DNA of 63,918 nucleotides, the filler included, from Acidimicrobiia bacterium (lineage in GTDB: Bacteria; Actinomycetota; Acidimicrobiia; Spongiisociales; CAZKJJ01): assembly GCA_046759765.1 (NCBI GenBank). It is 7 parts of 7 records of this genome, joined end to end, with 100 filler letters (N's around TTAATTAATTAA, not from the genome) between each part and the next. Parts side by side here need not be neighbours in the genome. Positions count along the whole stretch, not along the records: positions 18,796 to 28,062 come from JBHICV010000097.1; 6 more parts are not named here. One strand, 5' to 3'. The notes beneath the pieces are model-generated. The model saw nothing but the letters and a program-made list of their open reading frames with translations, was not told the DNA's origin and ran no database searches. Shown in pieces: positions 22,890 to 27,970 of this stretch. Position 1 is the stretch's first letter. Each line of letters opens with the position of its first letter. The position numbers and the translations under genes are program-made.

Positions 22890-22904
22890 GCACATATGCG
22901 CTAT
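22890..22904 (+). repeat. Right half of dif-like site abutting IS30 end
   Basis: GCAC-ATATGCGCTAT. Confidence 0.85.
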
Positions 22905-22917
22905 CTGCGGCGAACGG

Positions 22918-23604
22918 CTAAGGAGTTGGGCTCTCGGCTGTCAGCATGTAGAAGCGATCCCCCCGATGGTCCATCGAGGTCCGCCAGCCGCGGTCTTGGA
23001 AGATCGCAGCGACGCTGGCGGGATCGTGACTCACTTTGACAAGCCGATACCTCCGGCCGTCACTCACCGTCCGGTGAGACACCCAGGGATCCTCATCATC
23101 CGCACCAACGGAAAGGCCCGGATCATCGAACTGGTGCTCATCTACCAAGACAACCGAACCGCCAGGCCGGCAAAGGCTATCTACCTGGTCAACGAACCCC
23201 GGTATCAGATCAGGGGGGACATGGGACAGCCAAAAAGACGAGAAGACAACGTCATGACGACGGTCAGACTTCCACTCGAAGAGATCGGCCACCACGTACG
23301 AGACGTTTTCGCCTCCAAGTCGCTGACGGGCCAACTCCAGAGCTTCTCCTGAGGCGTCCACCAGTGTCACCGAGTTGGCTGTGTCCCTCAGCAGCTCGGT
23401 CCAGAGACCGGTGCCAGCTGCTAGATCGACGACATCACCTGTCAGGGTCTTTCCACCAACCTTGGCCCTCAGCTGCTGCCACTCAGCGGCGTCGGGATCG
23501 GATAGATCTGGCACCATGCCTGCGTCGTACTCGGGCGCTCTGGCCTCGAAGTACGCAATCTGCTCCTGCAGCAACCGTTCCTGCCGATCCCCAGCCTCGC
23601 CCAT
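22918..23604 (-). CDS. Class I SAM-dependent methyltransferase
   Basis: QIAYFEARAPEYD, VVDLAAGTGLWT, DVVFSSFWLSHVP. Confidence 0.9.
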   Translation of the reverse strand: MGEAGDRQERLLQEQIAYFEARAPEYDAGMVPDLSDPDAAEWQQLRAKVGGKTLTGDVVDLAAGTGLWTELLRDTANSVTLVDASGEALELARQRLGGENVSYVVADLFEWKSDRRHDVVFSSFWLSHVPPDLIPGFVDQVDSLCRPGGSVVLVDEHQFDDPGLSVGADDEDPWVSHRTVSDGRRYRLVKVSHDPASVAAIFQDRGWRTSMDHRGDRFYMLTAESPTP

Positions 23605-23655
23605 GAGAGCAGGCTAGATAAGCCGCCACCAGCCGAGCAGAGGGCCACTCACCCA

Positions 23656-23683
23656 TCCGCCCATATCGGCACATATGCGCTAC
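23656..23683 (+). repeat. 28-bp dif-like site (intact)
   Basis: TCCGCCCATAT-CGGCAC-ATATGCGCTAC. Confidence 0.9.
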
Positions 23684-23729
23684 CGGAGCCGGGCTGGGAT
23701 CGGGTCTGGGGGTCGGCGCGTCTGGGCGG

Positions 23730-24323
23730 TTATGTAAGCGCGGCGCAGACTTCTGACCAGTCCGCGACCCGGAGGGCGTTAGGTGGCAGTGGCTGAGTCT
23801 GGTTCCAAGGGTACCGACCGAAGAGCAGCGCGCGGAGGCCCTCCTCCGCCGCTCCAGTGAGGTGGGCGACTTGGTCGTCAACCAAGACTCCGGCCCTGAT
23901 CTGTCGGCAGACGCTCGCCTTGGTCACGGGCCTTTCTCCTCGCTCGGAGTGTCCGACCCCGAGAATCACTGGATCGAATACCCCTGCGAAGTACTTCTCG
24001 ATCCACGCTTCCGTAACAGCGGCGAAGTCCGGATCTCTGGCGCTCACCACCGCCAGCTGGTACTTCGCTTGTAGACCCTCCAGGCATTCAACGGCCCCAG
24101 GGATGGGTTTAAGGCCGAGAACGTCTACCTCCCGGAAGAACAGTGCCAACCGCTCGATCGCCTCTTCCTTAGTGCCGCCCCACGCCTCGAATAAGTACTT
24201 CGCCGTAGCAAGATCCTCAGGGGTGAGATCAGTCCCGTATCGACGGTTATGCCACTCGAAGAAGGGCGTGACGAAGTCAAACAACACATCATCGAGATCG
24301 AAAACTACGGTGATCCGCTCCAT
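23730..24323 (-). CDS. HAD superfamily 5'(3')-nucleotidase-like protein
   Basis: VVFDLDDVL, VVSAR, KASVC, VLVDD, PWN motifs. Confidence 0.85.
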   Translation of the reverse strand: MERITVVFDLDDVLFDFVTPFFEWHNRRYGTDLTPEDLATAKYLFEAWGGTKEEAIERLALFFREVDVLGLKPIPGAVECLEGLQAKYQLAVVSARDPDFAAVTEAWIEKYFAGVFDPVILGVGHSERGERPVTKASVCRQIRAGVLVDDQVAHLTGAAEEGLRALLFGRYPWNQTQPLPPNALRVADWSEVCAALT

Positions 24324-24520
24324 ACCTGGCACGGGTTTCCTTCGCCGTGGACGAACCTTCCAAGAGGAACCGGCTCGGGTTGGTTATACCCACCAACTCG
24401 ATGCCGCCACCCACTCAGATCACTGCAACCGCACCAAATATGGGTGATATCACTCGGCGGCAACAGTTCACGATACCGGCACATCGCAGGCGGCCAGGCG
24501 AGAACCTCGGGTGAGTGCAG

Positions 24521-24548
24521 ACAGCGCATATCGGCACATATGCGCTAC
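24521..24548 (+). repeat. 28-bp dif-like site (intact; 9-bp perfect inverted arms)
   Basis: ACAGCGCATAT-CGGCAC-ATATGCGCTAC. Confidence 0.9.
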
Positions 24549-24660
24549 TGATCTATGCGCAGCGGGGGGAGTGGCCAGCGCTATTGCATCTCTGAGGGCG
24601 CAGGTGCATGCTGGTCAGATCTGTCGAGTGGCGCCTCTGTCACGGTGAGGTGAGGAGCCG

Positions 24661-26158: not shown

Positions 26159-26294
26159 CTGCTCACTGGTTGCAAAGCGTTGCTATGAGCGGCCAACCCC
26201 AAACTTTGGGGTTCTGAGCTTGTTCGGATCGGAATCACCTCATAGCAGGCTGGATAGGGTTGAAGCGAAGGCATCGCTGTGACCTGTGCCACCT

Positions 26295-27341
26295 ATGGAA
26301 GGGGGAGGGTTGCGCTTGCTGGGAGGCTGGCTTCTTTCCGTTGCTCTGGTAGTGGCGGCCTGTGGCACAGCAGCTGGCCCACCTTCTTCTGAGGCGATCA
26401 GCTGGTCTCGGGTCCCCCACGACGAGGCGATATTCGGCGGAGCGGGTGTCCAGCGGATGGCGAGCGTGACCGCCGGGGGGCCGGGTCTGGTGGCAGTCGG
26501 ATCGGTGGGGCCGGTCGACGATGCCGATGCAGCGGTGTGGACTTCTCTTGATGGGCTCAACTGGTCCCGGGTCACCCACGACGAGGCGGCTTTGGGCGGA
26601 GAGCGTAGCCAGCGGATGACGAGCGTGACGGTGGGAGGCCCGGGCCTGGTGGCGGTCGGATGGGACCGGTCCGGCGGCGATCAGGATGCTGCGGTATGGA
26701 CTTCTCCTGATGGGATCGCCTGGTTTCGGATCCCCCACGACGAGGCGGCTTTGGGCGGAGAGGGTAGCCAGCGGTTGGCGAGCGTGACTTCCGGGGGCCC
26801 GGGCCTGGTGGCAGTCGGATCGGACCGGTCGGGCGGCGATGTCGACGCGGCGGTGTGGACCTCACCTGTTGGGATCGTATGGTCCCGCGTCCCTCACAGC
26901 GAGGCCGTTTTCGGAGGAGAGGACAGCCAGGATATGAGAGGGGTAACCGCCGGAGGCGAGGAGCTGGTGGCAGTCGGATCGGACCGGTCGGGCGGCGATC
27001 AGGATGCTGCGGTGTGGACTTCTCCGGATGGGATCACCTGGTCCCGGGTCCCCCACGACGAGGCGGTCTTCGGCGGAGAGGGTTTCGAGTTCATAGTGAG
27101 CGTGACTTCCGGGGGCCCGGGTCTGGTGGCAGTCGGACGGGACGGGCTCGGCGATGCCGATGCTGCGGTGTGGACCTCTCCCGATGGGCTCACCTGGTCC
27201 CGTGTCCCCCACGACGAGGCGGTCTTCGGCGGAGTGGGTCGTCATGGGATGCGCAGCGTGACCGCCGGGGGCCCAGGTCTGGTGGCAGTTGGAGAGGAGG
27301 GCAGTCGTGGTGCGGTATGGGTGATGGCTAGGGAAGATTGA
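26295..27341 (+). CDS. Lipoprotein with ~60-aa repeats (Asp-box/beta-propeller-like); exact start uncertain
   Basis: Lipobox VVAAC; about five repeats of WSRVPHDEAVFGG...SVTAGGPGLVAVG...DAAVWTSPDG. Confidence 0.85.
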   Translation: MEGGGLRLLGGWLLSVALVVAACGTAAGPPSSEAISWSRVPHDEAIFGGAGVQRMASVTAGGPGLVAVGSVGPVDDADAAVWTSLDGLNWSRVTHDEAALGGERSQRMTSVTVGGPGLVAVGWDRSGGDQDAAVWTSPDGIAWFRIPHDEAALGGEGSQRLASVTSGGPGLVAVGSDRSGGDVDAAVWTSPVGIVWSRVPHSEAVFGGEDSQDMRGVTAGGEELVAVGSDRSGGDQDAAVWTSPDGITWSRVPHDEAVFGGEGFEFIVSVTSGGPGLVAVGRDGLGDADAAVWTSPDGLTWSRVPHDEAVFGGVGRHGMRSVTAGGPGLVAVGEEGSRGAVWVMARED

Positions 27342-27464
27342 CAAGGGCGTATTTACTGGCGGACCCCCGCACCAGTCGACTGGCCGAGCCGGGGTCACAC
27401 TATGGGGAAGTGCGGGCTCGAACACTCATACATGCGCTCACAATCAGGCCCAGCGCGGTCACCA

Positions 27465-27495
27465 TCCGCCCATATCGGCAGCACATATGCGCTAG
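27465..27495 (+). repeat. dif-like site with 9-bp expanded spacer
   Basis: TCCGCCCATAT-CGGC-A-GCAC-ATATGCGCTAG. Confidence 0.9.
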
Positions 27496-27511
27496 GTCGG
27501 GAGCCTGTTAC

Positions 27512-27664
27512 TCAACCTCCGGGCGCTGTCTCGACCCGCACCCCGGCTGCGATCATCTTCTCCACTATTTGAGCGATGAGTTCCTCGGCGTCAAGGAAAG
27601 CGAGGCCGTATTCGCCGTCAGGCTCAAAGGGGCAAATAACCACTCCTCGGCGACTTCTCGCCAC
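27512..27664 (-). CDS. 50-aa hypothetical protein
   Basis: Hand-translated VARSRRGVVICPFEPDGEYGLAFLDAEELIAQIVEKMIAAGVRVETAPGG; AGGAGG upstream. Confidence 0.4.
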   Translation of the reverse strand: MARSRRGVVICPFEPDGEYGLAFLDAEELIAQIVEKMIAAGVRVETAPGG

Positions 27665-27704
27665 TCTCGGTCGACCTCCTAGTTACCGGGCCTGTCTGCT
27701 CAGA

Positions 27705-27848
27705 TCATGCAAGGTCGAAGCGATCGAGGTTCATGACCTTGTCCCACGCAACCACGAAGTCACGCACGAACGACTGCTGCGAGCCGTCACATGCGTAGAC
27801 CTCTGCAATGGCTCGGAGCTGGGAGTTCCAACCGAAGACGAGGTCGAC
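27705..27848 (-). pseudogene. katG: 3'-terminal fragment of catalase-peroxidase
   Basis: [47 protein letters not shown] matches the KatG C-terminus; rest of gene absent. Confidence 0.85.
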
Positions 27849-27942
27849 ACTCACCTGCATCCCGCCGCTGCAGGACAAGTCGCCTATACCGGCATCGAAG
27901 GCGACGGGCAGCTCTACTCAGTGATCGGTTCGGGCGCTAGTA

Positions 27943-27970
27943 GCCGCTCATGCTGCCGTTAATGGGCGGG
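27943..27970 (-). repeat. Inverted variant dif-like site
   Basis: Minus strand CCCGCCCATTA-ACGGCA-GCATGAGCGGC; 22/28 identical to 26131-26158. Confidence 0.55.

Follow-up and report, generated by a model that had tools for sequence, protein, structure and literature searches.

Introduction

The window analysed here is a stretch of 63,918 nucleotides from a genome binned as Acidimicrobiia bacterium (assembly GCA_046759765.1), in which seven contigs are joined by N's (1-9309, 9410-18695, 18796-28062, 28163-37357, 37458-46516, 46617-55596 and 55697-63918). On contig 3 a short conserved motif returns between single accessory genes, which raises the question of what these sites are and how the genes came to stand between them. 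The original prediction had taken the motif for a dif-like recombination site and the region for a candidate undescribed cassette system. On balance, we take the region for a chromosomal gene-cassette array in partial decay, one of a family that is widespread among Acidimicrobiia-like Actinomycetota. The array family as such looks like an undescribed gene-cassette system; searches by keyword and by the literal site string found no published description of the site or the system, subscription journals and part of PubMed Central lying outside this search.

The motif array in the window

The string CATATGCGC/ACATATGCGC occurs six times as an exact match (22892, 23671, 24536, 25740, 26113 and 27483), always on the plus strand and always on contig 3. 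These six exact copies of ACATATGCGC span 4.6 kb (22892-27492), with 0.10 copies expected by chance, and none of 100 shuffled sequences reached six. Furthermore, the 19-mer CATATCGGCACATATGCGC is present without mismatch at 23662 and 24527, for which the chance expectation is 0.01 even if three mismatches are allowed. All seven motif copies that had been reported (22890, 23656, 24521, 25145, 25722, 26094 and 27465) could be confirmed in their places and in their common (+) orientation.

A search profile was made from 102 sites of other genomes that belong to S1, the larger of two spacer classes introduced below. It gave six window matches with E<0.01, all on the plus strand (23657, 24520, 25721, 27466, 26095 and, with its right half only, 22890), and these are confined to a stretch of 4.6 kb out of the 63.9 kb. 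Owing to its degeneracy, the copy at 25145 escaped the profile and was detected only as an 80% gapless match (repeat family D10). On the other window contigs, approximately 55 kb of core-gene DNA, the S1 profile found no intact copy. Hence, the statement that the housekeeping contigs lack the motif is right for intact copies, but remnants exist at 18600-18649 and 62673-62686, each abutting the end of an element of the IS30 family of insertion sequences (IS).

Every copy is intergenic and each interval holds one gene, three on the plus and three on the minus strand, and all six accessory genes named in the original prediction were recovered (methyltransferase, nucleotidase, two SRPBCC genes, a small membrane protein and a repeat lipoprotein; Table 1). 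To the right of the last S1 site there is only debris, i.e. a truncated small open reading frame (ORF) and a katG remnant. Most of the window array is probably no longer recombinogenic and the array largely a fossil.

The site family in other genomes

A species-representative genome collection was scanned with the pattern CATATCGGC-N(0-6)-ACATATGCGC. The scan returned at least 150 stretches, of which 126 loci were kept, 80 of them with long flanks, and the family figures given here rest on these loci, cited below by their L numbers. After five overlapping loci had been left out (L007, L008, L110, L111 and L032), 158 pattern instances remained, 138 of them without a gap. The 20 gapped instances are scattered singletons in unrelated bacteria, at about the number expected by chance, with the exception of L099 and L124, which come from one metagenome-assembled genome (MAG) of the Acidimicrobiaceae.

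The consensus of 131 unique copies reads acccGCcCATAT-CGGCAC-ATATGCGCTAsCTG. At position -1, 67% of the copies have C and 32% have G, and this position marks two types of left arm, the C arm ACCCGCCCATAT (about two thirds) and the D arm CAGsTAGCGCATAT (about one third), the latter being an exact inverted copy of the right arm. The core site has 28-34 bp in total: a 6-bp spacer, which is asymmetric and the most uniform part, is flanked on either side by an arm of 12-14 bp, the two arms being inverted to each other. With a looser arm pattern applied to the loci and the window, the spacer had 6 bp in 205 of 222 sites, as originally proposed for the window array; there, however, this length applies to only three of the six full copies (23656, 24521 and 25145), whereas two have a spacer of 9 bp (25722 and 27465) and one has a spacer of 10 bp (26094).

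Two spacer classes stand out among the generic sites, namely S1 (CGGCAC/GTGCCG, n=149) and S2 (TGCCGG/CCGGCA, n=49). S2 often follows exactly 45 bp past S1, and in nearly all pairs the distance from start to start is 43-46 bp, while the linker sequence is variable. A second arm-like motif, mostly a downstream S2, was found within 75 nt of 65 of the 138 S1 copies; approximately half of the S1 sites are solo and conserved as well as the paired ones. All arm combinations (D-D, C-C, C-D and D-C) are present. In two Acidimicrobiia MAGs with long contigs S2 lies nearer to S1, at 34 bp in L125 and visibly closer in L126, and the difference of 11 bp in L125 corresponds to about one helical turn. A third, rarer site form with the right arm ATATCGAGCGG was seen 8-10 nt upstream of some C-arm S1 sites (L010 3760-3810, L027, L057, L014, L067 and window 18600-18625).

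Canonical S1 sites occur in at least 19 assemblies, counted by accession prefix, of which 11 are labelled Acidimicrobiia, Acidimicrobiaceae or Actinomycetota and the others Gammaproteobacteria, Kiloniellales/Kiloniellaceae, Gemmatimonad-type or Armatimonadetes. The non-actinobacterial labels should be read with distrust, because differently labelled bins share near-identical DNA, i.e. 4,071 bp at 99.9% between L009 ('Kiloniellaceae') and L037 ('Gammaproteobacteria') and 619 bp at 99.5% between L089 ('Armatimonadetes') and L103 ('Acidimicrobiia'), and because the G+C content of all long loci is 60-67%, as in the window. Unreliable bins or recent DNA movement are both possible sources of the cross-phylum labels. 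In plasmid and phage collections, the S1-S2 doublet found no match (blastn, E up to 0.01).

Modules and their probable exchange at the sites

The sites are arranged as arrays in other genomes as well. L009 carries at least 14 sites in 13.6 kb, in one orientation throughout, all sites of L048 fall within 8041-12039 of a 20.6-kb stretch (from a 119-kb contig), and in L019, L017, L026 and L056 there are 5-10 kb of site-free housekeeping DNA beside the first site. Consecutive sites delimit 69 modules; counting ORFs from 60 aa upward, 48 of these have a single one, six have two and 13 have none, and the median module length in these relatives is 858 bp. Relative to the sites, the gene of a single-gene module lies on the plus strand in 19-21 and on the minus strand in 28 cases, and no link between arm type (C or D) and gene orientation appeared when inversion between S2 and S1 was tested. 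Since the genes lie in either orientation, each of them presumably has its own promoter. The cargo is accessory and very diverse, with no family of more than three members among 360 ORFs, and includes a beta-lactamase-fold hydrolase, sulfatases, alpha/beta hydrolases, peroxiredoxins, SRPBCC proteins, methyltransferases, a glyoxalase, a major facilitator superfamily (MFS) transporter with TetR, several adenylate cyclases and many proteins without family.

All loci were compared pairwise at a minimum of 85% identity and 250 bp, which gave 11 contig pairs with common segments. Most alignment ends coincide with contig or stretch limits. Eight ends are internal and informative, and six of them lie within 13 nt of a site centre, the other two being 91-93 nt and more than 300 nt away from the nearest site. 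L021 and L047 have 1,176 bp in common at 98.8% up to an S1 site and diverge beyond it, while L021 shares 1,106 bp at 99.4% with L053 from an S2 site on, with different DNA upstream; L013 and L059 have a common sequence from an S1 site onward, L025 and L030 have a cyclase cassette in common that ends within the spacer, and the pairs L015/L018 and L034/L045 break at sites that carry an IS30-family element. Module shuffling among relatives with breakpoints at the sites, which had been named as a check, was thus observed, and the change of neighbours at the sites supports cassette exchange by site-specific recombination. Contig ends behave in a related manner: among 91 ends of full-flank loci, a site centre lies 61-200 nt away in 24, clustered at 87-150 nt, and within 60 nt in two, a clustering that would be expected of k=141 assembly graphs which branch at the sites.

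An IS30-family element at the site centre

The 'half' copy at 22890, so listed originally, is a site split by an IS30-family insertion, of which the IS was later truncated; it is a scar and not the end of the array. The adjoining IS fragment (22560..22889) matches HTH_38 at E 9e-6 and is 81% identical in amino acids and 73-87% in nucleotides to copies in L010, L031 and L044. The intact N-terminus in L010 matches HTH_38 in two stretches (E 1.9e-24), and full-length relatives of the transposase have 378-379 aa, 71-96% identity and an rve core (PF00665); they are named IS30 family transposase and come from Actinomycetota or Acidimicrobiia. Many further database relatives (P0007, P0052 and about a dozen more) have 204-246 aa and consist of the HTH part without the rve core, some of them on contigs of 0.2-2.7 Mb, and truncated N-terminal transposase fragments recur in the window, L031 and L034.

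Three IS30-family ends stand at sites in the window (22889, 18650 and 62687). Seven IS left ends align from TG on, each directly after spacer base 4 (GTGC, CGGC, TGCC or CCGG, then the IS), and the opposite junctions (...CA, then GCCG-ATAT or CCGG-TTAT) start at spacer base 3; the insertion therefore occurs at the central dinucleotide, with an implied 2-bp duplication. Among the IS copies in the window and the loci, no single complete copy with both junctions was found. IS30 itself prefers palindromic hot-spot targets and duplicates 2 bp of them.

The same element offers an explanation for aberrant spacers. Seven of the 17 spacers that deviate from 6 bp fit CGGC-(N0-1)-GCAC, i.e. a doubled central GC with or without one extra base, and the 9-bp spacers at 25733 and 27476 fit CG-GC-N-GC-AC. 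These 9-bp spacers could be footprints of IS loss, composed of the 2-bp target duplication and one base, and because they fit such a footprint we consider most of the window array as probably inactive.

Weighing the cassette reading and the question of the recombinase

Several observations weigh against reading the region as a cassette array. Only two of the seven window copies are canonical, and the footprint explanation covers no more than the seven of 17 deviating spacers mentioned above. The exchange evidence comes from six contig pairs of metagenome bins with no window cassette among them, and in the comparison of the window with the loci no window cassette was found in another context; apart from the sites and the IS, only the repeat lipoprotein had a match there, and a distant one. 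The proposed assembly by site-specific recombination draws its support from the comparison of the relatives. Moreover, homologous recombination between repeats of 28-34 bp could mimic such breakpoints, and neither a cassette-circle junction nor a pair of empty and occupied alleles was seen in the compared loci. Finally, Pfam searches of 212 locus ORFs (97 + 115) revealed no recombinase in or beside any array, and the right arm agrees with the XerD arm of Frankia alni dif, which may differ from the host's own, at only 4 of 11 positions.

Because no recombinase was found beside the arrays, the enzyme would have to act in trans. A recurrent protein family that might serve as a candidate was not present either, as no family exceeded three members among the 360 ORFs. 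The window encodes no intact recombinase, as had been stated, and only a 5'-truncated tyrosine integrase next to a tRNA-Thr gene (Table 1). It is 44% identical to an integrase in L011, which adjoins tRNA-Val, and a tblastn search of the loci with these two integrases retrieved only each other. A third member of this broad integrase group (29-34% identity) is fused to an IS30-type N-terminus in the database protein P0048. In contig 2 of the window as in L011, the site-bounded modules lie on the far side of the integrase, and the arrays may perhaps sit inside tRNA-inserted islands; we take the tRNA-adjoining integrases, which are placed as is usual for island integrases and were the only tyrosine recombinases seen, as markers of array-hosting islands and not as the cassette enzyme. 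In detail, the order in the window (17957-18695) is tRNA-Thr, truncated integrase, degenerate S1-like site, C arm with half spacer and IS left end, and in L011, laid out like contig 2, it is tRNA-Val, integrase, a DUF3631 gene and then modules bounded by S2 and S1. A site derived from the tRNA as an att repeat was ruled out, the tRNA-Thr sequence having no likeness to the site.

In its architecture the site corresponds to the simple core sites of tyrosine recombinases. In the proposed mechanism, the enzyme, most likely a simple tyrosine recombinase (Xer/Cre type), would be encoded at another place in the genome, act in trans and exchange strands between sites of the same spacer (S1 with S1, S2 with S2), S1 and S2 being sites that would not cross-react. 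A cassette would leave as a circle with one site and re-enter at any matching site. At the left end of the window array, a site was split by the IS30-family insertion, and the IS was truncated later. The enzyme may alternatively be a serine recombinase; in that case the crossover site would need a central dinucleotide, and an accessory site would have to lie at a fixed distance.

Alternative explanations

The nearest alternative, possible but doubtful in our view, is that the arrays are Xer-dependent dif modules on which the host XerC/XerD, or a single Xer, acts, as has been proposed for the plasmid-borne dif (pdif) modules of Acinetobacter and for integrative mobile elements exploiting Xer (IMEX). 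A Xer-type enzyme in trans is also our first guess for the recombinase, at roughly one in four. Frankia alni dif reads CACGCCGATAA-TGCACA-TTATGTCAAGT (PMC3025954), and the C-type arm agrees with its XerC arm at 8 of 11 positions, again with the reservation that this may not be the dif of the host; the suggested resemblance of the left arm to the actinobacterial XerC arm was therefore correct. The 28-bp core with its 6-bp central region, the lack of a dedicated recombinase beside the arrays and the strong conservation of the site across many assemblies, which suits a conserved housekeeping enzyme, point in the same direction, and pdif sites likewise form two clusters by their central nucleotides (PMC6449649) and have a site-targeting IS family (PMC10132070). 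However, the XerD arm, to which the right arm shows so little likeness, is the best-conserved half of dif (PMC6449649), and since the right arm is not XerD-like the dif/Xer assignment is unproven; of the XerCD dif/pdif architecture originally invoked, the tyrosine-recombinase core layout holds and the XerD arm does not. The free arm combinations are unlike one XerC plus one XerD arm, and some assemblies have many arrays. The scans of the window ORFs found no xer gene. As to clustering near chromosomal landmarks, which the original prediction had wished to see examined, GC skew proved uninformative, being equal on both sides of the L048 array (-0.037 and -0.037), so that this array is not at a skew switch.

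The sites might also be selfish palindromes, i.e. repetitive extragenic palindromic (REP) sequences or REP doublets forming hairpins (REPINs), spread across an accessory island by a transposase like the REP-associated tyrosine transposase (RAYT) of the IS200/IS605-like type, with neighbour changes by homologous recombination, which we judge improbable. REPINs are inverted REP doublets at fixed spacing, dispersed and linked to RAYTs, and the sites described here are short, imperfect, intergenic palindromes whose S1-S2 doublets, with their fixed spacing and their folding into hairpins, recall REPINs and to this extent count against the cassette reading; IS elements that target REPs exist too (ISPpu9). 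The sites are, however, strongly clustered instead of dispersed, approximately 55 kb of core-gene contigs and the long flanks being site-free, the intervals contain a single gene each, shared modules have their breakpoints at the sites, and 289 ORFs scanned with Pfam or NCBIfam contained no Y1/RAYT domain. An integron-like system of folded strands, with the S1-linker-S2 doublet as analogue of attC and a reaction of the integron or CTX type, is still harder to defend. As single-stranded DNA the doublet forms a stem of 28-34 bp with two one-base bulges beside the central 5 bp (z -4.5 to -8.6), and the 45-bp spacing stays fixed while the linker varies; attC sites have extrahelical bases, and the attP of the CTX phage is folded from an inverted pair of dif-like sites. 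Against this, about half of the S1 sites are solo and equally conserved, and solo C-type S1 sites fold no better than shuffled sequences. In 22 of 47 doublets S2 has a C-type left arm, whereas the right arm of S1 is always D-type, and the outer doublet arms show no covariation (Fisher p 0.69), which also speaks against REPINs. The attC boxes have the consensus RYYYAAC ... GTTRRRY, and no such boxes are present in the 131-copy consensus or in 36 doublets. No IntI was found, the integron-integrase models of NCBIfam giving sub-threshold partial hits to the island integrases (31.3 bits at a cut-off of 265), and the genes lie in both orientations. Because the doublet arms do not covary and half of the S1 sites are solo, we favour duplex sites, and the fixed 45-bp spacing may be a constraint of protein geometry. 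It is very unlikely that the IS30-family element itself gave rise to the sites, as its products or pseudo-ends, and that the arrays are scars of transposition. The IS is found in or beside sites at no fewer than seven places, and three IS ends stand at sites in the window alone, but its terminal sequence TGCCGCCTCAAGGCGTGAACGCAAC has no likeness to the arms, it splits the sites at their centre as expected of a target, and more than 200 intact sites have no IS nearby. We give next to no credence to a transcription-factor operator for the adjoining genes, to which the inverted repeat and the two copies between divergent genes (24521 and 26094) might be ascribed. The distance from the window copies to the next start codon varies between about 52 and 190 nt, the copy at 25722 lies between convergent 3' ends and those at 22890 and 25145 directly past stop codons, so that an operator with a fixed spacing to its gene is ruled out; in addition, the cargo is unrelated between arrays, the shared modules break at the sites, and the module order is not invariant, since neighbours differ among relatives.

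Genomic setting and features of the window

The G+C content is 62-65% on every window contig. The array is chromosomal, since Lgt and an MscS-type channel are encoded to its left on contig 3, and the remaining contigs contain core genes including DisA, IspD/IspF, CysS, LexA, RNase Y, MiaB and dUTPase. Among the 120 relatives listed for the window CysS, all organism-named ones (59-64% identity) are MAGs of Acidimicrobiia or Actinomycetota, except one 'soil metagenome' record; the host is therefore an Acidimicrobiia-like actinobacterium. Rfam searches of the whole window at the gathering threshold gave three tRNAs and nothing else.

Table 1. Sites, cassette genes, IS30-family ends and neighbouring remnants in the window
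Feature	Position	Strand	Details
5'-truncated tyrosine integrase	18056..18643	-	PF00589, E 7.5e-16, positions 33-169 of 172; adjoins tRNA-Thr 17957-18030
End of contig 2: degenerate S1-like site, then C-type arm with half spacer	18600..18625; 18634..18649	+	E 0.057 and 2.1, weak alone
Left end of second IS30-family copy	18650..18695	+	after C arm and GTGC; runs off contig 2
IS30-family fragment	22560..22889	-	left end (TGCCGCCTCAAGG...) and about 90 N-terminal transposase codons; frameshift; ends before catalytic domain
Right part of S1 site	22890..22907	+	last 4 spacer bases, D-type arm ATATGCGCTA, outer TCTG; E 0.0004, profile positions 17-34 only
S-adenosylmethionine-dependent methyltransferase, cassette gene	22918..23604	-	Methyltransf_25, E 2.5e-15
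Canonical S1, C-type left arm	23655..23686	+	CCGCCCATAT / CGGCAC / ATATGCGCTA; exact 19-mer; 39.3 bits, E 2.6e-11
NT5C/HAD-type nucleotidase, cassette gene	23730..24332	-	NT5C, E 5.5e-13
Canonical S1, D-type left arm	24518..24551	+	near-perfect 14-bp inverted repeat around CGGCAC; exact 19-mer; 37.3 bits
SRPBCC protein (Polyketide_cyc2), cassette gene	24661..25119	+	E 2.5e-13
Degenerate S1-like copy	25145..25172	+	spacer CGGTAC; 80% to copy at 23659 (D10); missed by profile
SRPBCC paralogue, cassette gene	25230..25697	+	E 3.7e-13; repeat families D5, D13
S1, 9-bp spacer	25721..25752	+	spacer CGGCTGCAC (at 25733); profile 27.6 bits
Hydrophobic small membrane ORF (55 aa), cassette gene	25812..25979	-	weak DUF6223 match only (E 0.02)
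S1-like, 10-bp spacer	26094..26124	+	spacer CGGCATCCAC (at 26105), changed arms; 12.6 bits, E 0.006
S2-like, directly past the preceding S1-like site	26130..26157	+	spacer TGCCGA; repeat family D19; S2 profile E 0.015
Lipoprotein-like protein, cassette gene	26286..27341	+	six 159-nt repeats; repeat families D1-D4
S1, 9-bp spacer	27464..27495	+	spacer CGGCAGCAC (at 27476); profile 27.0 bits
Catalase-peroxidase C-terminal fragment (katG remnant, last 47 codons)	27708..27878	-	NF011635 positions 678-724 of 725, E 4e-20
Degenerate S2-like site	27943..27970	+	D19, 79% to 26131-26158; profile not significant
Contig 7: C-type arm with half spacer, then IS-end remnant	62673..62699	+	CCACCCATAT CGGC, then exact 13-nt IS-end remnant (at 62687)

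The site at 24518..24551 can fold as a single-stranded hairpin of -9.9 kcal/mol (z -3.3). The repeats of the lipoprotein-like protein comprise 53 residues each, and it is 31.6% identical in amino acids to array cargo of L038 (347-3154), a 935-aa protein with a PDZ domain. Another methyltransferase of the window (21431-22258) shows generic 32% similarity only to a methyltransferase of L031. The arm remnant on contig 7 sits between an 888-aa cyclase/TPR protein (59968-62634) and the next gene, and large cyclase/TPR proteins are array cargo in L011, too. Elsewhere in the window, an RtcB-family gene (36608-37357) that matches the intein-containing RtcB model NF038162 (E 1.2e-85) runs off the end of contig 4, and a 1,639-aa protein with a CSLREA N-terminal domain and choice-of-anchor Q domains (37460-42376) is open at its contig end.

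Significance

The cassette arrays known so far are integrons, mainly in Proteobacteria, and the dif modules of Acinetobacter plasmids. If uncultured Actinomycetota have a third family with sites of its own, the capture of single genes at short recombination sites would have arisen more widely than has been assumed. The S1 and S2 profiles can be used directly for scanning and thereby for mining the accessory gene pool of the abundant uncultured Acidimicrobiia. The family would also define the search for a new pair of recombinase and site, and two naturally heterospecific sites would be of practical interest for cassette exchange. The IS30-family element at the exact centre of the spacer represents a second testable case of an IS that is specialised on recombination sites.

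Tentatively, one may go further and assume that the Acidimicrobiia possess a gene-capture system of their own, with single-gene cassettes that have their own promoters and are exchanged between chromosomal arrays, a recombinase in trans, S1 and S2 at a fixed helical phase, transfer across phyla and an IS30-family parasite, although we consider this wider proposal less probable than not. If it were true, the S1/S2 pair would allow cassette swapping in addition to insertion and excision, and the sites in bins of Gammaproteobacteria, Kiloniellales, Gemmatimonadota and Armatimonadota would stem from transfer and not from binning error.

Comparison with known systems

The closest known system is that of the dif modules of Acinetobacter plasmids. 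Both consist of modules with one or a few accessory genes that encode no recombinase, bounded by sites of approximately 28 bp with inverted inner arms and a 6-bp centre. The central nucleotides divide pdif sites into two classes (PMC6449649), and the sites are the target of an IS family of their own (PMC10132070). The host here belongs to the Actinomycetota and the arrays lie on chromosomal contigs with core genes instead of plasmids, a XerD-like arm is missing (4 of 11 positions to the F. alni XerD arm) and the arms combine freely. As the original prediction had pointed out, the sites are mostly direct rather than alternating: S1 forms direct repeats (L009 and the window), accompanied by S1-S2 doublets at a fixed 45 bp, and these doublets would alternate in orientation only on the view that S2 represents an S1 in inverted and slipped form. 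Furthermore, the IS belongs here to the IS30 family and inserts at the centre of the spacer.

Integrons and clusters of attC sites lacking integrases (CALIN) are similar in that they form arrays of mostly single-gene cassettes with diverse, mostly unknown cargo in variable order, and arrays without a neighbouring integrase occur among them. The distinction from integrons that had been drawn originally (no attC, mixed gene orientation) stands, since IntI, an attI/Pc platform and attC boxes are all missing and the genes point in both directions, unlike the co-oriented promoterless cassettes of integrons. The sites measure 28-34 bp and the doublets 73-78 bp, whereas attC sites have 57-141 bp. In one survey (PMC4889954), complete integrons were absent from all Actinobacteria genomes included.

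REP sequences and REPINs resemble the present sites as imperfect intergenic palindromes with inverted hairpin doublets that are targets of site-specific IS, but they differ from these clustered gene-by-gene arrays, in which neighbours change at the sites and no RAYT is encoded among 289 ORFs. IMEX such as the CTX phage, which integrate at dif, form tandem elements between dif-like sites and use a recombinase supplied by the host, and the S1-S2 doublet is similar to CTX attP with its folded, inverted pair of dif-like sites. In contrast to them, the modules described here carry single genes without phage or replication functions, some assemblies have many arrays, and the array of L048 is not at a GC-skew switch. 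The IS30 family, finally, shares with the element found here the transposase of HTH_38 and rve and the insertion in the middle of a palindrome, where a 2-bp duplication is implied for the present element. What is compared here is the parasite of the sites and not the cassette system, and the target in this case is a specific family of recombination-type sites.

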